From: an uncultured Bifidobacteriaceae bacterium
GTDB taxonomy: Bacteria; Acidobacteriota; Vicinamibacteria; Vicinamibacterales; UBA2999
Assembly (NCBI GenBank): GCA_964372085.1
Contig: CAYJPQ010000009.1
Span: 12,415 to 76,414, forward strand
DNA length: 64,000 nucleotides
Direction of reading: 5' to 3'
The notes beneath the pieces were generated by a model that was not told the DNA's origin, searched no databases, and saw only the letters and a program-made list of their open reading frames with translations. The translations under genes and the position numbers were made by a program. This document shows, piece after piece, positions 10,788-44,688 of the stretch. Position 1 is the first letter of the stretch, and the number at the start of each line of letters is the position of its first letter.

Positions 10788-10823
10788 GCACCTGATGCAC
10801 CCGCTGCACCTGCTGCACCCGCC
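10788..10823. repeat. 9-bp tandem repeat x4 (GCACCTGAT GCACCCGCT GCACCTGCT GCACCCGCC)
   Basis: Read directly. It fills the 39-bp gap between the convergent PilZ and GGCT genes. Confidence 0.8.
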
Positions 10824-15985: not shown

Positions 15986-16554
15986 AGCGTTCCGCGCAAC
16001 CCGAGGGCGTCGGCCTGCGCCCGCATGAAGCCAATCACGTTGGTCACATGCTCAGCGAGGGGCAGCCCCATCAGCTCGGCGCCGCGTTTCAAGTGGTCGC
16101 GCGGCACCTGGCGGGCAAACGCCTTGTCCTTCATCCGCTTGATCACCGAGGCGGCCTCGAGGTCGAGGAGGCTCTTCGACGGGCGCACCAGCGCGGCGGC
16201 CGTGATGAACCCGGCCAGCTCGTCGCAGGCCACCAGGGTCTTCTCCACAGGCGACTCCGGCTCCACGCCGGTGATCTCCGAGGCGTGCGACAGGATGGCC
16301 CGCATCACCCACTCCGGATAGCCCAGCGACCGCAGGTGCTCGCAGCCCTTGTTGGGGTGGTCCCCCAGGGTGGGATACCGCTCGTAGTCGAAGTCGTGGA
16401 GCAGCGCCACGACGCCCCACTCCTCCTCGTTGGCCCCCTGCTGCCGGGCGTAGCCCCGCACGGCGGCCTCCACGGCCAGGGCATGCTTGCGCAGGCCCTG
16501 GCCCTGGGTCCATTCGCTGAGCAGTTGCCAGGCGGCGTCGCGGGAGAGGGTCAT
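15982..16554 (-). CDS. HD-superfamily metal-dependent phosphohydrolase
   Basis: H...HD pattern (LRKHALAVEAA ... LLHDFDYE). Start at ATG 16554. The track extension to 16617 (PQAPSPKPQALKP) is just translation of the heptamer repeat. Confidence 0.7.
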   Translation of the reverse strand: MTLSRDAAWQLLSEWTQGQGLRKHALAVEAAVRGYARQQGANEEEWGVVALLHDFDYERYPTLGDHPNKGCEHLRSLGYPEWVMRAILSHASEITGVEPESPVEKTLVACDELAGFITAAALVRPSKSLLDLEAASVIKRMKDKAFARQVPRDHLKRGAELMGLPLAEHVTNVIGFMRAQADALGLRGTL

Positions 16555-16572
16555 GGGGGAAATGATACTTGA

Positions 16573-16644
16573 AGGCTTGAGGGCTTGGGGCTTGGGGCTT
16601 GGGGCTTGGGGTACCACAGGACCCAGGGCTCAGGACTCAAGACC
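16573..16644. repeat. Heptamer array (GGCTTGG/GGCTTGA)n - GGTACC - (CAGGAC/CAAGAC)n
   Basis: Plus strand reads GGCTTGAGGGCTTGGGGCTTGGGGCTTGGGGCTTGGGGTACC, then ACAGGACCCAGGGCTCAGGACTCAAGACC. It sits between the Nudix stop and the HD start. Confidence 0.85.
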
Positions 16645-17052
16645 TTTCCTGATCACGCCAGCAGCGTGGGGATTCACGCCGTACGCCTCCAACTCGTCGC
16701 CCGTCACCCACGCGACGGCTTCGGCATCCGAGCCGGCCACGGCGGCGCCCTCGGCGGCCCGGCACACGAAGTCGATGATGACGAAGTGAAAGCGGATGCG
16801 GCCGTCGGCGTCGCGGTGCACGCGATCGAAGGTCTCGATGATGGCCCCCACCTCGATGGAGAGGCCGGTTTCCTCGCGGGCCTCCCGTGCCACCGCCTCC
16901 ACCAGCGACTCGCCCAGTTCCACCAAGCCGCCCGGCAGCGACCACTCGCCCTTGCGTGGCTCGTGGCCCCGCCGAACGATGAGCGCCCGTCCGTCGCGGA
17001 CGATCACCGCGCCGACGCCAACCACGGGGTGTGCGGGGTATTCTCTGGCCAT
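16630..17052 (-). CDS. Nudix hydrolase
   Basis: Nudix box GEWSLPGGLVELGESLVEAVAREAREETGL. Start at ATG 17052. The track extension (MRNPVRNPV) is translation of the 13-mer repeat. Confidence 0.85.
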   Translation of the reverse strand: MAREYPAHPVVGVGAVIVRDGRALIVRRGHEPRKGEWSLPGGLVELGESLVEAVAREAREETGLSIEVGAIIETFDRVHRDADGRIRFHFVIIDFVCRAAEGAAVAGSDAEAVAWVTGDELEAYGVNPHAAGVIRKGLES

Positions 17053-17082
17053 ATGCGAGCGCACACCGAGTATCTGACGTTT

Positions 17083-17203
17083 CACGGGGTTCCTCACGGG
17101 GTTCCTCACGGGGGTTCCTCACGGGGGTTCCTCACGAAGGTGCCTCACGATGGTACGTGTGGAACCTTCGTGTGGAACCTTCGTGTGGAACCTTCGTGTG
17201 GAA
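17083..17203. repeat. Inverted arrays of a 13-mer: (GGTTCCTCACGGG)x4-5, centre GGTACG, (GTGTGGAACCTTC)x3
   Basis: Read directly. The right-arm unit is the reverse complement of GGTTCCACACGAA, the same 13-mer family as at 44545-44647. It fills the tsaD-Nudix gap. Confidence 0.9.
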
Positions 17204-18295
17204 CTAGAGCGGCAGGCTTGCTGCCGCGTTGAGGTCGTCGGCCGCCACGTGACCGGCCGCCAGTTGTCTCAAGCCGGCGGCGGCAATCATGGCGGCGTTG
17301 TCGGTCGAGAGCGACAACCTCGGGATGAAGACCGGGATCTCCGTGCCCGTCGACCTGGCAAGGGCATCGGCGCGGAGGCGCGAATTGGCCGACACCCCTC
17401 CGGCGATGCCGATGGCGCGGGCGCCGTGCCACCGCGCGGCGGCAAACGTCTTGTCGACCAGGGTCTCGACCACCCGCCGCTGGAAGCTGGCGGCCAGGTC
17501 GGCGATCTCGGCGCCGGGCAGGCGCTCCGACCCCAACTCGGCCTGGCGCCGCCGCACGTGCCGCAGCACCGCCGTCTTGAGCCCGCTGAAGCTGAAGTCG
17601 AAGCGGCCGTCACGCTCGGGCGCGTTGCGATCGGGGTTGGTCAGGCGGGTGCCGGGCCACCGGATGGCCTCGTCGTGGCCCTGCTGCGCGAGGCGGTCGA
17701 TGATGGGCCCGCCCGGGTACCCCAGGCCCAGGAGCTTCGCCACCTTGTCGTACGCCTCCCCCGCCGCATCATCGCGCGTGCGGCCCAGCAGGCGGTAGTC
17801 GCCTTCCTTCTGGACCAGGTAGAGGCTGGTGTGTCCGCCCGAGACCACCAGCACCACGGCCGGCAGCGGGATGACGCCGTGCTCGAGCCAGATCGACTCG
17901 ATGTGGCCCGCCAGGTGATTCACCGCCACCAGGGGTTTGCCGAGCGCCCACGCGGCCGCCTTGGCGAATGACACGCCCACCAGCAGCGACCCCACCAGGC
18001 CGGGACCCTGCGTCACCGCCAGCGCGTCCACGTCGGCCCAGCCCGCCCCGCCTTCGGCCAGCGCGCGCTCCACGACGCCGCAGATGTCGCGCACGTGCTG
18101 GCGCGAGGCCAGCTCCGGCACGACGCCGCCCCACTCGCGGTGAATGTCCACCTGCGACGCGACGACGTTCGACCGGATCGACCACCCGTTCGACTCGCCC
18201 CGCGTTCGGGGCTCGCTCAGGGCAGGCCGAGAAGGCGACTCCACAAGCGCGGCCGCGGTCTCGTCGCAGGACGTTTCGATGCCGAGGATCAGCAT
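17204..18295 (-). CDS. tsaD: tRNA N6-adenosine threonylcarbamoyltransferase
   Basis: MLILGIETSCDETAAALV N-terminus, GPGLVGSLLVG and the NHLAGH motif. Start at ATG 18295; the track ORF is over-extended to 18748. Confidence 0.9.
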   Translation of the reverse strand: MLILGIETSCDETAAALVESPSRPALSEPRTRGESNGWSIRSNVVASQVDIHREWGGVVPELASRQHVRDICGVVERALAEGGAGWADVDALAVTQGPGLVGSLLVGVSFAKAAAWALGKPLVAVNHLAGHIESIWLEHGVIPLPAVVLVVSGGHTSLYLVQKEGDYRLLGRTRDDAAGEAYDKVAKLLGLGYPGGPIIDRLAQQGHDEAIRWPGTRLTNPDRNAPERDGRFDFSFSGLKTAVLRHVRRRQAELGSERLPGAEIADLAASFQRRVVETLVDKTFAAARWHGARAIGIAGGVSANSRLRADALARSTGTEIPVFIPRLSLSTDNAAMIAAAGLRQLAAGHVAADDLNAAASLPL

Positions 18296-18315
18296 ATGGG
18301 TGGAGGGCCGGGACT

Positions 18316-19356
18316 TCAGTCCCGGCCGCGCGCGAGCGTTTCCAGGTACGGCGGCCGGAACACCCCGCGCTCGGTGATGATCGCGGTGATGTACTTGCTG
18401 GGCGTGACGTCGAAGGCGGGGTTGCGCACCTTTGCGCCCTCGGGCGCCAGCTGGTTCTTGCCGACGTGGGTCACCTCGCGCGGGCTGCGCTCCTCGATGG
18501 GGATGCCCGACCCGTCGGCGGTGGCCAGGTCGATGGTGGACCACGGCGCCGCCACGTAGAAGGGGATGCCGTGCTCCTTCGCCAGCACGGCCACCGAGTA
18601 GGTGCCGATCTTGTTGGCGGTGTCGCCGTTGGCGGCGATGCGGTCGGCGCCCACCACGACCAGGGTGATGTCGCCCGCGCCCATGATGGCGCCGGCCATG
18701 TTGTCGGTGATCACCGTCGTGTCGATGCCGTCCTTCACCAGCTCCCACGCCGTGAGGCGCGCGCCCTGCAGGAACGGGCGGGTCTCGTCGGCCAGCACCT
18801 TCACGTCGCGCCCGGCCTCGATGGCGCCGCGGATTACGCCCAGCGCCGTGCCGTACCCGGCGGTGGCCAGGGCGCCGGCATTGCAGTGCGTGAGGATGGT
18901 CGCCGAGGCGGGCACCAGCGCCGCGCCGTGCACGCCGATGGCCCGGCAGCTCGCCACGTCATCGTCGTGAATCCGGTCGGCGGCGCCGCGCAGGCGCGCG
19001 GCGAGCTGCGCCACCGACTCGCCGGCGAGCGCGCCCTCGGCAAACGCCTGCTTCATGCGCTCGATGGCCCAAAACAGGTTGACGGCCGTGGGCCGCGTGG
19101 AGGCCAGCAGGTCGCAGTTGCGCTGGAACTCGGTGGTGAATTGCTTGGTGCCGGTGGCCTTGCTGCGCGCGGCGCCCAGGGCCACGCCCATGGCCGCGCA
19201 CACGCCGATGGCCGGCGCGCCGCGAATGACCATGGTCTTGATGGCCTTCGCCACGTCGTTCACGGTCTTGCAGGTCACATACACTTCGGCCGCCGGCAGC
19301 TTGCGCTGGTCGACCATCACGATCTCGTCACCTTGCCAGGCGATGGTTGGGAGCAT
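18316..19356 (-). CDS. mtnA: S-methyl-5-thioribose-1-phosphate isomerase
   Basis: [21 protein letters not shown]...IRGAPAIG...[18 protein letters not shown] is typical of the MtnA/eIF-2B family. Confidence 0.85.
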
Positions 19357-19372
19357 GTCGGGGTAATTGTAC

Positions 19373-19454
19373 AGGCTTAGGGCTTAGGGCTTGGGCTTGG
19401 GCCTTGGGGCTTGGGGCCTGCGGTACCTCAAGACCCAAGACTCAAGACCCAGGC
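19373..19454. repeat. Heptamer array (GGCTTAG/GGCTTGG)n - GGTACC - (CAAGACC)n
   Basis: AGGCTTAGGGCTTAGGGCTTGGGCTTGGGCCTTGGGGCTTGGGGCCTGCGGTACC, then TCAAGACCCAAGACTCAAGACCCAGGCC. It lies between the cdd stop and the mtnA start. Same family as 16573-16644. Confidence 0.85.
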
Positions 19455-19877
19455 CTACAAGAGTCTTCGATCAAACGGCAGCGGGAAGAGATCCTTCAAC
19501 TGCATCGTGGCCGTCACGGCGGAGAGGTTGGCCATGGTGACCTCGAGGTCGCCGCCGAACTCCCAGAGGATCTGTCGGCAGGCGCCGCAGGGGGGCGTTG
19601 GCGCCGCGGTGTCGGCCACCACCACCACGCGGCGGAACGTGCGGTGGCCGTCCGACAGCGCCTTGAACATGGCCACGCGCTCGGCGCACACGGTGAGGCC
19701 GTAGGTGGCGTTCTCGACGTTGCACCCGGTGATGATGGTGCCGTCCTCGGCTTCGAGCGCGGCCCCCACCTTGAAATGCGAGTAGGGGGCGACGGCGTGC
19801 TCGCGGGCGGCCCGGGCGGCGGCCACCAGTCTATCCGCCGACGCGTTGGCGGAGGTGGAGGTCTTAGAGGCGGCCAA
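19455..19877 (-). CDS. cdd: Cytidine deaminase
   Basis: Zinc motifs CAERVA and PCGACRQ; 140 aa. Confidence 0.85.
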   Translation of the reverse strand: MAASKTSTSANASADRLVAAARAAREHAVAPYSHFKVGAALEAEDGTIITGCNVENATYGLTVCAERVAMFKALSDGHRTFRRVVVVADTAAPTPPCGACRQILWEFGGDLEVTMANLSAVTATMQLKDLFPLPFDRRLL

Positions 19878-20682
19878 TGATCCCCTCCAGCAGGGCGATG
19901 AACTGCCCTTTCACCTGCCGCGCCGTCTCCATCACCTCGTCGTGATGCAGGGGCACTGGCAGCACGCCGGCGGCGGCGTTGGTGATGCACGAGATGCCCA
20001 GCACCTCCACGCCCATGTGCCTGAGCGCGATGGCTTCGGGCGCCGTGGACATGCCCACGGCGTCGGCGCCCAGCACTCGGAAGGCGCGAATCTCGGCCGG
20101 GGTCTCGTAGCTCGGCCCGAGCACGGCCAGGTAGATGCCGTGCTGCAGGTCGAGGCTCATCGCCTTGGCCGCCTCATCGGCGAGGCCGCGCAGCCGCGGC
20201 GAGTACACCGCGCTCATGTCGGGAAACCGCACGCCGAAGCGCTCGTCGTTGGGGCCCACGAGCGGGTTGGCCCCCATCAGGTTGATGTGATCGTCCATCA
20301 CCATCAAGGCGCCGCGCGAGCACTTGGGGTTGATGCCGCCGGCGGCGTTGGTGAGGATCACCTGCGTCACGCCGAGCCGCCCCATCACGCGCATCGCAAA
20401 GGTGACCGTCTGCAGGTCGTGGCCCTCGTAATGGTGCACGCGCCCCGACAGCGCCAGCACGCGCCTGCCGGACGCCAGCCCGCCCACGAGCTTGCCCGCG
20501 TGGCCAATCACCCTGGAGGCGGGCCAGTGGGGGATGTCGCCGTACGGGATGGTGAACGACTCGGCCAGGCCGTCGGCGAAGTCGCCGAGGCCGCTGCCGA
20601 GCACCACGGCGACGTCCGCGCCGCCGCAGCCATGTCCACGCAGCCACTCGGCCGCCTCCGTCACCCGGTCGAAGTAGCTCAC
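19864..20682 (-). CDS. Purine nucleoside phosphorylase (trimeric PNP/PunA type)
   Basis: VVLGSGLG...HYEG...TNAAGG...GPSYETPAE...GMSTAPE motifs. GTG 20682 overlaps the nupC stop (GTGA). The rest of track ORF 19864..21819 is out-of-frame overlap with nupC. Confidence 0.85.
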   Translation of the reverse strand: MSYFDRVTEAAEWLRGHGCGGADVAVVLGSGLGDFADGLAESFTIPYGDIPHWPASRVIGHAGKLVGGLASGRRVLALSGRVHHYEGHDLQTVTFAMRVMGRLGVTQVILTNAAGGINPKCSRGALMVMDDHINLMGANPLVGPNDERFGVRFPDMSAVYSPRLRGLADEAAKAMSLDLQHGIYLAVLGPSYETPAEIRAFRVLGADAVGMSTAPEAIALRHMGVEVLGISCITNAAAGVLPVPLHHDEVMETARQVKGQFIALLEGIIGRL

Positions 20683-30622: not shown

Positions 30623-32140
30623 ATGCGTGTTCCCAGCCTGGGCCCCGCCGCCCGCCTCGTCGGCCTCGTGGCCGTCGTGATCGGCGGGCTGGCCACCGTG
30701 TCTGGCGGCGCCCAATCCGCCATCTTCGCCGGCGCCGCACGGCTCATCGTCCAGGACACGGCGCTGCCGGCCATCGACCGCGGCCTGCGCGCGCAGGATC
30801 CGCCGCGCGACCCCAACACGCGCACCGCGCCGCGCCTGGGCCGCGCGGACCGGGCGGCCGGCGCGCCCTACCTCTCCGGCTCGGTGATCGTGAAGTTCAA
30901 GGGGGACGCGGCCTTCGACCTCCTCGACATCCCGGCCGGCGCCGATGCCGAGGCCGCCTCCGCGGCGTGGCGCGCGCGCCCCGACGTGGAATACGCGCAG
31001 CCGCGGTACCTGAACCACGCGATGTCGCGGCCCAACGACCCGCTGTACCAGCACCAGTGGAACTTCCCGGCCCTCGACATGGAGCGCGCCTGGGACATCC
31101 AGCCGGGTGCGACCGCCGACATCATCGTGGCCGTGCTCGACAGCGGCCTCGCCTTCTACTCGGGCACCATCCGCTACAACTCGCGTTTCGCGTTCCGTCT
31201 TGCGTCCGGTGGCCCTGTCTATCCGGCCCTGGGCCTGGTGGACGTGCCGTTTGCGGCCGCGCCCGAACTGGGCCCCTCGGGATCGAGCCGGTTCGTCTCG
31301 CCGCGCGACTTCATCTGGGACGACACGCTGCCGGTTGACCTCGACGGCCACGGCACGCACGTGGCCGGCACCGTGGGCCAGCTCACCAACAACAACCTCG
31401 GCGTGGCCGGCATGGCTTACAACGTTCGCATCATGCCCGTGAAGATCATCCAGGGGCTCTGGGACGAGATCTTTTCCAGTCCCAACGAGGGCACCGACGA
31501 CGTGGTGGCGCGCGGCCTCCGGTACGCGGCCGACAACGGCGCCAAGGTGATCAACATGAGCATCGGCCGCACCGAGGGCGGCCCGGCGCCCGCGGTGACC
31601 GAGGCCATCCGCTACGCCGTGGGGAGGGGCGCGTTCGTGGCGCTGGCCTCGGGCAACAGCCGCGAGCAGGGCAACGCGCCGAACCGGCTCGCCGAGGCCG
31701 CAGCCGACATCGACGGCGCCGTCGCGGTAGCGGCCGTGGGACGCACCCTCGAGGCGGCCTACTACTCCACGACGGGCGCCGCCGTGGAGATCGCCGCCCC
31801 CGGCGGCGACCAGCGGCAAGGCGGCAACGTGGCCGGCATCCTGCAGCAGACGCTGGACCAGGACCTGCTCGAAACCTACAACCGACCGACGTCGCAGTAC
31901 GGCCCGCCGCGCGCCGATTCGTTTGCCTACTACTACCTCCAGGGCACGTCGATGGCCACGCCGCACGTGTCGGGATTCGCCGCGCTGCTGATGCAGCAGG
32001 GCATCACGAGCCCGGCGGCCATCGAGGCGGCGATGAAGGCGTTTGCCACCGACAAGGGCGCCGCAGGCCGGGACGACGTGTACGGCTACGGCCTCATCAA
32101 CCCTCGCGCCACCCTGCGGGGCCTGGGCCTGGCCCGCTAG
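30623..32140 (+). CDS. Secreted S8 (subtilisin-like) serine peptidase
   Basis: Triad motifs VAVLDSG (Asp), HGTHVAGT (His) and GTSMATPHVSG (Ser). N-terminal signal-like segment. Confidence 0.85.
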   Translation: MRVPSLGPAARLVGLVAVVIGGLATVSGGAQSAIFAGAARLIVQDTALPAIDRGLRAQDPPRDPNTRTAPRLGRADRAAGAPYLSGSVIVKFKGDAAFDLLDIPAGADAEAASAAWRARPDVEYAQPRYLNHAMSRPNDPLYQHQWNFPALDMERAWDIQPGATADIIVAVLDSGLAFYSGTIRYNSRFAFRLASGGPVYPALGLVDVPFAAAPELGPSGSSRFVSPRDFIWDDTLPVDLDGHGTHVAGTVGQLTNNNLGVAGMAYNVRIMPVKIIQGLWDEIFSSPNEGTDDVVARGLRYAADNGAKVINMSIGRTEGGPAPAVTEAIRYAVGRGAFVALASGNSREQGNAPNRLAEAAADIDGAVAVAAVGRTLEAAYYSTTGAAVEIAAPGGDQRQGGNVAGILQQTLDQDLLETYNRPTSQYGPPRADSFAYYYLQGTSMATPHVSGFAALLMQQGITSPAAIEAAMKAFATDKGAAGRDDVYGYGLINPRATLRGLGLAR

Positions 32141-32320
32141 GGCCACGGATGAAATACACAGGGCCACAGATGAAACACAGATGAGACAGACACACCACCC
32201 TCACGGAGCGACCCGTGTTCGCCTGGGCCTGGCCCGTCAGGGCCACGGATGAAATACACAGGGCCACAGATGAAACACAGATGACGCAGACACACCGTCC
32301 TCAGGGCGCGACCCGTGTTC
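32121..32320 (+). repeat. Tandem duplication, 2 x 100 bp
   Basis: 32121-32220 versus 32221-32320 differ at 8 positions by manual alignment. Copy 1 carries the S8 stop codon. Each copy carries an ATG (32181 and 32281). Confidence 0.9.
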
Positions 32321-32958
32321 GCCTCGGCCGCGCGGCCGCGCTGGCCGCACTGATCCTGGTGGCCGCCGCGCCTCGCGCCGCCGCCCAGGCGGACGGCCTG
32401 CACATCGGTGGATACGCCATGGTCGGCAGCATGAGCTTCGCGGCCACGGAGAGCTTTGACGCGGTGCTCGGCACGTCAAGCGGCACCGTGTTCGGCGGAG
32501 GCGCCACGGTGGGACTGCCGTGGGGCGGCCTGTTCTTCAGCGTGGGCGCTTCGCGCTTCTCCGCGGAGGGAGAGCGGGCGCTGTGGCTCGACGGCCAGGT
32601 GTATCCGCTGGGCATCCCGCTGACGGTGAAGGTCACGCCGGTCGAGGTGACCGGCGGCTGGCAGTTCCGCGGCCTCTCGCGCCGGTTCGTCCCCTATGTG
32701 GGCGGGGGCTTCAGTTCGTACGCCTACCAGGAATCGTCCTCGTTTGCGGCCACGGGCGAAGACGTGGACGAGCGCTTCTCCGGCTATCACGTGCTGGGCG
32801 GAGCCGAGTTCAAGGTGGCCAGCTGGCTGGGCGTGGCGGGCGAATTCGCCTGGACCACCGTGCCCGACGCGCTCGGCGCCGGGGGCGTGTCGGAGGCCTT
32901 CGACGAAACCGACCTGGGCGGCACCAGCCTCCGCCTGAAGGTCACAATCGGGCGGTGA
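32281..32958 (+). CDS. Small outer-membrane beta-barrel-like protein
   Basis: Signal peptide ending AAPRAAAQ. Alternating beta-strand-like pattern, about 225 aa. Start assigned to ATG 32281 in repeat copy 2. Confidence 0.55.
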   Translation: MTQTHRPQGATRVRLGRAAALAALILVAAAPRAAAQADGLHIGGYAMVGSMSFAATESFDAVLGTSSGTVFGGGATVGLPWGGLFFSVGASRFSAEGERALWLDGQVYPLGIPLTVKVTPVEVTGGWQFRGLSRRFVPYVGGGFSSYAYQESSSFAATGEDVDERFSGYHVLGGAEFKVASWLGVAGEFAWTTVPDALGAGGVSEAFDETDLGGTSLRLKVTIGR

Positions 32959-35735: not shown

Positions 35736-36188
35736 ATGAAGAGCGTAACCGGGCTTGTTGCAGTGATCGCGGGCGTGTTGCTGGCCGGGAGCGTCGCGGC
35801 CCAAACCACGCCGCAGGGTCAGGTGCCGGCGGGTGCGACCGCGCTCGGGTCGGTCAGCCTCCCGCGCAGCGTCATGGCTGACGGCAAGGCCCTGAAGGCC
35901 GGCACCTACCAGGTGCGGCTCACGGCCGACGCCGCGCAGCCCGCCGTGCCGGGCCAGCAGATGGAGCGCTGGGTGGAATTCGTGCAGGGTGGCAAGGTGG
36001 CCGGCCGCGAGGTCGTGAGCATCGTGCCGGCCGGCGAGATGAAGGATCTCAACAGCCAGTCCAAGGGGCCCAGGCCCGCCGCCGGGGGCACCCGCGTGGA
36101 GATGCTGAAGGGCGATGAGTACCTGCGCGTCTGGATCAACCGCCGCGGAGTGAACTACCTGCTGCACATGCCGCCCGTTAAGAGTTAA
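35736..36188 (+). CDS. Small secreted hypothetical protein
   Basis: GGAGG RBS. Signal peptide MKSVTGLVAVIAGVLLAGSVAAQ. No recognisable domain. Confidence 0.6.
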   Translation: MKSVTGLVAVIAGVLLAGSVAAQTTPQGQVPAGATALGSVSLPRSVMADGKALKAGTYQVRLTADAAQPAVPGQQMERWVEFVQGGKVAGREVVSIVPAGEMKDLNSQSKGPRPAAGGTRVEMLKGDEYLRVWINRRGVNYLLHMPPVKS

Positions 36189-36282
36189 AGAGTTAAAGAG
36201 TTAAGAACAAAGGGCCGGGCCGCCACAGCGGTACCGGCCCTTTTTTGTTGGCTAACTCTGAACTCTGAACTCTGAACTCTCT
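36183..36282. repeat. Inverted short-repeat arms (AAGAGTT/AAAGAGTT)x3 and (AACTCTG)x4 flanking a terminator hairpin with central GGTACC
   Basis: Read directly: GTTAAGAGTTAAAGAGTTAAAGAGTTAAG ... hairpin ... TAACTCTGAACTCTGAACTCTGAACTCTC. Confidence 0.85.
36209..36246. terminator. Bidirectional Rho-independent terminator between convergent genes
   Basis: Stem GGGCCGG (36212-36218) / CCGGCCC (36234-36240) with inner CCGC/GCGG pairing. A-run upstream and T6 downstream. Confidence 0.8.
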
Positions 36283-42322: not shown

Positions 42323-42378
42323 GGTGCCGGGTGCCACGTGCCGGGTGCCGGGTGCCACGTACCGGGTGCCGGGTGCCG
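42323..42378. repeat. 7-bp tandem repeat x8 (GTGCCGG / GTGCCAC / GTACCGG)
   Basis: Read directly. It lies in the mreB-mreC intergenic gap. Confidence 0.85.
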
Positions 42379-44515: not shown

Positions 44516-44544
44516 TCAACTGACTGAATATATCACGGCCGGAC

Positions 44545-44647
44545 GGGGTTCAACAGGGTTCCACACGGAGGTTCCACACGGAGGTTCCACACGGGGGTTC
44601 CACACGGAGGTTCCACACGGAGGTTCCACACGGGCGATTCCGCGCGA
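44545..44647. repeat. Direct 13-bp tandem array: GGTTCCACACGGA/G x6 with degenerate end copies
   Basis: Read directly. It lies in the divergent GGDEF / ppiD-like intergenic region. Same 13-mer family as 17083-17203. Confidence 0.9.
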
Positions 44648-44688
44648 GGCGTGTTACGATGTTTGTTTCCTAGAGGATACCGACGCGT

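Follow-up and report, generated by a model that had tools for sequence, protein, structure and literature searches.

Inverted 13-mer arrays between tsaD and a Nudix hydrolase gene belong to a dispersed foldback repeat family of Vicinamibacterales

What is the repeat that fills the gap between tsaD and a Nudix hydrolase gene in a member of the Vicinamibacterales, a major and barely cultured group of soil bacteria, and is it a device of that locus or a visitor to it? The repeat lies in a 64,000-nucleotide (nt) stretch of contig CAYJPQ010000009.1 (the window hereafter), where it occupies most of the 151-bp spacer (17053-17203) between two genes of the co-directional cluster cdd-mtnA-tsaD-Nudix-HD. 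We favour, with moderate confidence, the explanation that it represents a clade-wide, high-copy foldback family of Vicinamibacterales in its gene-less form, that this family is selfish or neutral in nature and similar to the intervening sequences (IVSs) of 23S rRNA genes, and that the RNA stem of the copy would decouple tsaD from the Nudix gene only incidentally. The repeat itself is ordinary, and not a regulator specific to tsaD or Nudix.

Direct reading of positions 17088-17205 gives five GGTTCCTCACGRR units, a 6-nt centre and four reverse-complement units. On the + strand the GGTTCCTCACG units start at 17088, 17100, 17113 and 17126 and are followed by a degenerate unit, GGTGCCTCACG, from 17139; on the right-hand side CGTGTGGAACC units begin at 17156, 17169 and 17182, and a fourth unit, CGTGTGGAACT, begins at 17195. 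An initial inspection of the letters (the sequence-only reading) had described inverted 13-mer arrays filling this spacer, with which both Tandem Repeats Finder (TRF) and an inverted-repeat search agree; its count of four units plus a degenerate one holds for the left arm, whereas the right arm has four units and not three. TRF reports a period of 13 with 5.4 and 3.8 copies, and the arms found by the inverted-repeat search are 49 nt long, 82% complementary and separated by 6 nt. Across the whole window, GGTTCCWCACG (at most one mismatch) occurs 19 times compared with 3.0 +/- 1.7 times in shuffled sequences, none of 100 shuffles reaching 19, and 15 of the 19 matches fall within two arrays, the one discussed here and another at 44546-44647. 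The features are the following:

17083-17087, + strand: remnant of an outer unit, CACGG, by direct reading; family arrays typically have such degenerate units at their outer ends
17088-17151, + strand: left arm, five GGTTCC-T-CACG-RR units of 12, 13, 13, 13 and 13 nt, the innermost degenerate (GGTGCCTCACGAT)
17150-17155: symmetry centre and hairpin loop of the predicted folds, ATGGTA (UACCAU in the sense RNA)
17156-17205, - strand: right arm, GGTTCC-A-CACG-AA (- strand reading) in four units, of which the outermost (AGTTCCACACG) is fused to the tsaD stop
17204-17206, - strand: tsaD stop codon TAG, under the outermost repeat unit (tsaD open reading frame, ORF, 17204-18295)
17050-17052, - strand: ATG, the probable true start codon of the Nudix gene; the resulting N-terminus fits an orthologue (L099) without extension
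44546-44647, + strand: another member of the family, a solo array in which degenerate copies flank six perfect GGTTCCACACGRR units (44557-44633)

An assembly artefact is ruled out as the source of the repeat, because the same hairpin is found in three independent assemblies, one of which represents a 99.9% strain variant; the window itself is 100% identical to ENA ERZ13692943 NODE_260. A CRISPR array was also rejected, as the units are arranged head-to-tail without spacers. The repeat has left a mark on the annotation: in the public annotation the Nudix hydrolase gene (16630-17109, - strand, 159 aa) begins with a GTG at 17109 that lies within the array. The proposal that the N-terminal extension MRNPVRNPV is nothing but translated repeat agrees with this position and with the orthologue that lacks it, and the start is likely to be the ATG at 17052, which would give a protein of about 140 aa. 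Repeat arrays of this kind give rise to spurious N-terminal extensions in annotations.

The recurrence of the 13-mer 27 kb away, reported by the sequence-only reading at 44545-44647, is confirmed by the six perfect units and their degenerate neighbours. This second array has a single orientation, an unremarkable fold (z +1.3) and an identical sequence in a 99.95% strain variant. It takes up about 100 of the 173 bp (44516-44688) between divergent GGDEF and ppiD-like genes; some 30-40 bp per side remain beside it for the promoters of these two genes.

Beyond the window, species-representative genomes from 16 assemblies contain the unit dimer in more than 91 stretches, nearly all in metagenome-assembled genomes (MAGs) labelled Acidobacteriota/Vicinamibacterales. 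At least 152 arrays with the consensus GGTTCC-N-CACG-RR are present in 16 other assemblies with these labels; array numbers per genome are lower bounds, and the genome of the window is not among the loci listed. A search of related genomes for GGTTCC[AT]CACG[AG][AG] arrays, which had been suggested as a check, yields further copies, and these typically lie just after the ends of upstream genes. Relative to genes called with a simple codon-bias caller, which reproduced the public gene calls, 146 of the 152 arrays listed are intergenic. Among the matches listed, neighbouring arrays within 3 kb of each other are arranged '+-' in 47 cases and '--' in 2, and '-+' does not occur; in 35 pairs, as in the copy between tsaD and Nudix, the gap is below 200 bp, and 52 arrays stand alone, including the second array of the window. 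The family element is 5'-(GGTTCCNCACGRR)n ... (YYCGTGNGGAACC)m-3', that is, two inward tandem arrays of a 13-mer with a GGTTC core. A logo built over ~727 units from 17 genomes reads G-G-T-T-C-C-N(T 55%)-C-A-C-G-R-R, its conservation being overstated by the detection of units with at most one mismatch. The tsaD-Nudix copy has the characters of this family: eight of its nine units show 0-1 core mismatch to GGTTCC-N-CACG-RR at a period of 12-13 nt, and its inward '+' then '-' arrays are intergenic and abut the upstream stop codon.

The location of the copies follows the space that genomes offer. Hairpin-type copies occupy 20 co-directional, 5 convergent and 4 divergent spacers, compared with 201, 34 and 70 available spacers of at least 40 bp, so that the gene contexts used are roughly proportional to availability. 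In co-directional pairs a median of ~4 bp separates the upstream stop from the copy and tens to hundreds of bp separate the copy from the downstream start; copies are often fused to the upstream stop codon, as TAG, TAA or TGA followed by GTTCC. The solo arrays listed have no strand bias with respect to neighbouring genes. A phage origin of the family was rejected after the unit dimer gave no match in 2.9 million viral contigs. We also rejected GGTACC as a defining centre, since the centres in other genomes differ (CTCGAG, CGGCCG, TCGA). Within the window, three of the seven GGTACC sites (16610, 19422, 36230) are the exact centres of inverted short-repeat arrays and the centre of the 13-mer hairpin carries GGTACG at 17152; this preference may be lineage-specific or due to chance.

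Comparison of units and of orthologous sites reveals how the elements change. At the variable positions, adjacent units of the same arm have an identity of 0.57, compared with 0.33 for the two arms of an element and 0.37 for different elements; homogenisation of units occurs within arms. The majority letters at positions 7, 12 and 13 match between arms no better than in permutations, and for the innermost 39 nt the folding of cognate arms does not differ from that of swapped ones (-51.2 vs -49.6 kcal/mol, p 0.36). The absence of a compensatory signal in these tests indicates that the pairing stems from the family consensus and not from compensatory evolution. Orthologous sites keep arrays across species with 70-87% flank identity, with different copy numbers and unit variants, and some such sites carry other unit types, namely a GCGATTG heptamer hairpin (L051) and an GGTTCTGAAA 10-mer element (L060). 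Among the arrays listed, GGTTCGGTKC is present 23 times in those of one MAG and in none of the others, and AGTTCACG is limited to two other MAGs. Strains differ by whole units (L178-L180). The fixed polarity and the genome-specific variants together suggest that sequence units are copied or converted between loci.

The tsaD-Nudix site is an example of this turnover. Its array is absent from L204 (~80% nucleotide identity), where a simple hairpin and an inserted ORF are found instead. The 11 orthologous tsaD loci with 63-69% protein identity all lack it too, and some of them hold unrelated heptamer arrays; in L099 and L204 the simple hairpin directly follows the tsaD stop. The family is maintained genome-wide, with local growth and shrinkage of arrays and with gain and loss at single sites. 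The sequence-only reading had preferred a dispersed family to local slippage: the family is borne out by the arrays in 16 assemblies, and the exclusive choice is not, as both processes operate, seen as homogenisation, as change in copy number and as genome-specific variants common to several loci.

Several sites add to the picture of where foldbacks occur. The 40-bp convergent spacer at 10788-10822 of the window contains four GCACCYGMT 9-mers, and in a related MAG, CTOTU39262 (L020, 5459-5772), a 13-mer foldback of ~330 bp precedes the orthologue of the gene downstream of this spacer. In L058 (4357-6092) an insertion sequence (IS) transposase gene of the IS1595 family and an IS3-like fragment lie between 13-mer foldback arms, which suggests that foldback centres are tolerated or preferred insertion sites. 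L059 (CAWARO010000006.1, 1.27 Mb, labelled Acidimicrobiia) shares 75-79% identity over 5 kb with a contig of an Acidobacteria MAG (L063), and both have a foldback at the shared site; judging by this similarity, the Acidimicrobiia label of the MAG is probably wrong.

A wider form of the element leads to a protein family. Arms that lie 470-570 bp apart enclose one small gene, often a four-helix-bundle gene of PF05635 (23S_rRNA_IVP)/TIGR02436 (L006, L048, L069, L088), and L035 and L060 add two more PF05635 genes, the one in L060 between inverted 10-mer arrays. A conserved cargo was rejected, as other wide pairs enclose methyltransferase-like, GNAT and cytochrome c genes, an IS1595 transposase and a thioesterase fragment. 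PF05635 homologues in the Vicinamibacterales clade were also drawn without regard to arrays: nine were looked up, DNA being obtained at seven distinct loci, and GGTTC-core arrays face the PF05635 gene at 7/7 of them, on both sides at 6/7, with 13-mer, 12-mer or 7-mer units. Many contigs with PF05635 homologues are shorter than 2 kb and one (L176) terminates within an array, consistent with assembly breaks at the repeats.

The association extends to other phyla. A tblastn search for PF05635 on plasmids returned 36 records, mostly from cyanobacteria. Among the 16 plasmid genes inspected (within L187-L202), 11 lie between two inverted arrays of short tandem repeats, built of mutually unrelated units: GGGAAAA, GGGTGTG, GCAGGGA, GGTGACA, GGAGATAA, GGCAGAA and, in Riemerella, AAGGTTYA. 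One of the 11 (L191) is an insert in the 23S rRNA gene of Azospirillum, i.e. an IVS, with arms made of heptamer arrays. In a 50-kb control region the two arrays that flank the gene are the sole short-period arrays containing G/C. The layout of an ORF between inverted short-tandem-repeat arms recurs at PF05635 genes in cyanobacteria, in Riemerella and in one 23S rRNA IVS, and PF05635 genes and short tandem arrays go together in every lineage sampled here. Cyanobacterial plasmids among L194, L195 and L199 carry PF05635 genes with arrays inside CRISPR-cas operons (cas6/cas4; cas10/cmr3), and in L195 and L198 both flanking arrays have the same orientation.

At the tsaD-Nudix locus, the sense (- strand) RNA of the repeat is predicted to fold at -74.7 kcal/mol (z -6.9), the antisense RNA at -87.9 kcal/mol and the single-stranded DNA at -39.7 kcal/mol (z -9.0), in accord with the long imperfect mRNA hairpin that had been proposed for these co-directional genes. 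A consensus scan of 16400-19600 found no T-run or U-tract, no terminator-like site and no promoter match. An intrinsic (Rho-independent) terminator was rejected on this basis, the hairpin being there and the U-tract absent, as the sequence-only reading had also concluded. An Rfam 15 scan of 16000-20000 (E<=1) produced only two sub-threshold chance matches to microRNA hairpins. A G-quadruplex reading of the 13-mer was discarded, because runs of three or more G occur in some spacer variants only and lie 8 nt apart, and the G-runs of the second array are no longer than GG; for the neighbouring GGCTTGG heptamers a G-quadruplex is possible.

The explanation that we prefer combines these properties as follows. 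Units would be copied or homogenised between loci by an agent possibly linked to PF05635 elements, and arrays would grow locally by slippage. At this locus the hairpin would be co-transcribed with tsaD and Nudix as part of the cdd-mtnA-tsaD-Nudix-HD cluster and would form a predicted RNA stem of ~50 bp in which mismatches recur regularly. As in the IVS stems that RNase III processes, this enzyme may cut the stem, and/or the stem may block 3' exonucleases; either effect would uncouple the tsaD and Nudix cistrons as a by-product and not as a regulatory design of the locus. The anatomy, polarity, position and dynamics observed for the family, and its link to PF05635, would be those of selfish or neutral DNA that survives only where DNA is dispensable.

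Five observations weigh against this explanation. First, 52 arrays are solo, among them the second copy in the window, and a solo array cannot form a stem. Second, 10 of the 13 unit positions appear conserved across genomes, which could reflect a sequence-specific function instead of copying. Third, no transposase or defined termini were found, inspection of ~140 arrays revealed no common terminus or target-site duplication, and outer units fade gradually into the flanking sequence; accordingly, the shared variants and the polarity are what our case for copying between loci is built on. Fourth, the centres of gene-less copies hold no convincing PF05635 remnants, so that descent from gene-bearing copies is a conjecture. 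Finally, the predicted sense-strand stem is interrupted every 4-6 bp and may be a poor substrate for RNase III.

A more novel reading goes further than our preferred explanation, and we put it forward only tentatively. It takes the gene-less arrays as non-autonomous satellites of a so far unrecognised cross-phylum class whose full form is a PF05635 gene bracketed by inward arrays, the PF05635 protein or a partner acting on the repeats in cis and in trans, by making, maintaining or processing them.

Doubtful, in our judgement, is the possibility that the arrays are protein-binding DNA, coated by a conserved protein, perhaps the four-helix-bundle one, and serving as regulatory, insulating or nucleoid-organising sites. 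The consensus kept in ~727 units from 17 genomes would fit such a role, as would the occurrence of solo arrays in both orientations, one of which (44546-44647) fills a divergent promoter region; the lack of compensatory change between arms makes the sequence, and not the pairing, look constrained. However, the estimate of conservation is biased by the detection rule, and elements of other phyla retain the tandem-plus-inverted layout with unrelated units (GGGAAAA, GGGTGTG, GGTGACA, AAGGTTCA), while within the clade the 13-mer is replaced by 7-, 10- and 12-mers. Binding requires no strict inward polarity, a repeat every 13 bp does not keep in phase with the DNA helix, orthologous loci do not conserve the arrays, and these adjoin stop codons rather than promoters. 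Binding is the less likely reading because it is the architecture that is conserved across phyla, and not the sequence. The protein-binding array offered by the sequence-only reading finds no favour in the unrelated units of other phyla or in the placement of arrays at stops.

An RNA element selected at this locus, which would act adaptively between the two cistrons as a terminator, an attenuator or a processing signal and so set the tsaD:Nudix expression ratio, is unlikely. The stem is very stable and begins at the tsaD stop, and since L099 and L204 also have a simple hairpin after this stop, a 3' hairpin there may be useful. Against this, the scan gave neither a U-tract nor a terminator match, compensatory evolution is absent, and the array is missing at 11/11 orthologous tsaD loci and in L204, whereas family copies occupy convergent, divergent and co-directional spacers in rough proportion to availability. 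It is the absence of the copy in relatives and the presence of the element in every kind of spacer that make a locus-selected terminator or attenuator improbable.

We consider very unlikely a templated addition of repeats, in which the arms are telomere-like tracts added by a reverse-transcriptase-type activity to the 3' ends of a break or insertion junction and then joined. PF05635 proteins are homologues of Avd, the accessory protein of diversity-generating retroelements and partner of their reverse transcriptase, and the idea would tie the arrays to an Avd-family gene. It predicts '+-' pairs only, as observed (47:0), and in most cyanobacterial examples, L195 and L198 excepted, the G-rich strand runs 5'->3' toward the centre. 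However, three positions vary among the units of a single array, whose higher-order periodicities are typical of unequal exchange; next to the elements no reverse transcriptase was seen, and descent from a single founder hairpin explains the polarity equally well. A plain local microsatellite, or variable-number tandem repeat, produced by replication slippage at tsaD-Nudix and unrelated to other loci is scarcely credible: copy-number polymorphism between strains and homogenisation of units within arms are what it expects, but the GGTTCC-N-CACG-RR unit forms more than 150 arrays in 17 genomes, the polarity is fixed (47:0), genome-specific variants are common to several loci and a further copy lies 27 kb away in the window, so that slippage alone is excluded as the complete explanation and is likely the mechanism of local growth.

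Among described systems, the closest are the convergent GGGAATC arrays of Xanthomonas and the Nostoc heptamers, with the Coxiella IVS heptamers as another close analogue. The Xanthomonas GGGAATC heptamers and the GGGGA(C/T)T heptamers of Nostoc, known as short tandemly repeated repetitive (STRR) sequences, are dispersed tandem arrays, 89-93% intergenic, with 70-75 convergent pairs per genome, ~28 nt to the upstream ORF and ~160 nt to the downstream one; they are rarer than expected between divergent genes, and related species share sites where length and sequence vary (Rehm et al. 2015, PMC4692102). The 13-mer family shares these properties: it is intergenic, often in convergent pairs, nearer to the upstream ORF and found at shared sites with variable length. 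It differs in having a unit of 13 nt and not 7, which is not rich in G and lacks a canonical G-quadruplex motif, and in belonging to another phylum; unlike the Xanthomonas arrays as reported, its wide form encloses a PF05635 gene.

In the Coxiella IVS, terminal inverted repeats form a stem with 2-3 tandem GACAGAT heptamers on the 5' side, their number varying between strains, and RNase III cleaves at the start of the first heptamer repeat (PMC4990558). The 23S IVSs of Coxiella and Leptospira place a PF05635/S23p ORF in the loop of an inverted-repeat stem, a layout shared by the gene-bearing 13-mer members. The tsaD-Nudix copy shares with the IVS a long stem, here a predicted fold, formed from terminal inverted repeats, but its 6-nt centre leaves no place for an ORF, and the window contains no PF05635 gene. 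Its site is an mRNA spacer and not helix 25 or 45 of the 23S rRNA, and each arm is a long array, with 4-5 units of 13 nt.

Other families are more distant. With repetitive extragenic palindromic (REP) sequences, bacterial interspersed mosaic elements (BIMEs) and REP doublets forming hairpins (REPINs), the 13-mer family shares high copy number, extragenic position, hairpin formation, long vertical inheritance and placement at gene 3' ends; REPs stabilise upstream mRNA. Membership among REPs or REPINs was rejected, as the 13-mer is not palindromic, has no GTAG/CGTC tag and forms tandem arms; no REP-associated tyrosine transposase was seen, though no search for one was made. Foldback (FB) transposons of eukaryotes have inverted arms of short tandem repeats. 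Like these, and like MITEs (miniature transposable elements with inverted repeats) and mobile insertion cassettes, the family has inverted ends and little or no cargo, and gene-less copies far outnumber gene-bearing ones; unlike MITEs and FB transposons, no defined termini, target-site duplication or transposase were found for it. Mycobacterial interspersed repetitive units (MIRUs) are tandem intergenic repeats within operons, and at their ends they overlap the stop and start codons of the adjoining genes. Their units of 40-100 bp form direct arrays only, often translatable and not inverted, and the 13-mer family is otherwise in these respects. Our literature searches found no paper stating an association of PF05635 with tandem repeats, and searches for acidobacterial arrays found nothing.

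The window contains further short-repeat arrays. The sequence-only reading had missed the other inverted arrays of the cluster, as well as the strict inward polarity and the PF05635 link of the family. Inverted arrays of the form (GGCTTGG)n, GGTACC, (CAAGACC-like)n fill the Nudix-HD spacer (16574-16650) and the cdd-mtnA spacer (19374-19451). The first is one heptamer shorter in the 99.9% strain variant (L093); L204 has a short array at the first site and none at the second, and L061 and L010 have similar GGCTTGG/GGGACTT hairpins. Between convergent genes at 36180-36280 there is a canonical bidirectional terminator, a GGGCCGG...CCGGCCC hairpin bordered by A/T runs; three AAGAGTTA units adjoin it on one side and four AACTCTG units on the other, and the tandem units seem to lengthen its stem. 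The spacer upstream of the 3' neighbour of an mreB-like gene contains, at 42323-42378, a GGTGCCG heptamer array whose higher-order period is 21 nt (2.6 copies, 97% match). At 32121-32329, a 100-bp unit present 2.1 times (91% match) between two + strand genes is unrelated to the 13-mer family and holds internal 21-mer and 11-mer repeats (CAGGGCCACAGATGAAATACA, CACAGATGAAA).

This work documents a previously undescribed and abundant repeat family of the Vicinamibacterales. Its repeats probably fragment short-read assemblies, and they mislead gene callers, as illustrated by the Nudix gene model. The family offers a handle on two old puzzles: i) the nature of the dispersed heptamer arrays, and ii) the role of the PF05635 "IVS" proteins. 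If the satellite relationship to PF05635 elements were true, rRNA IVSs, cyanobacterial STRR heptamers, Xanthomonas GGGAATC arrays and acidobacterial 13-mers would be one system.

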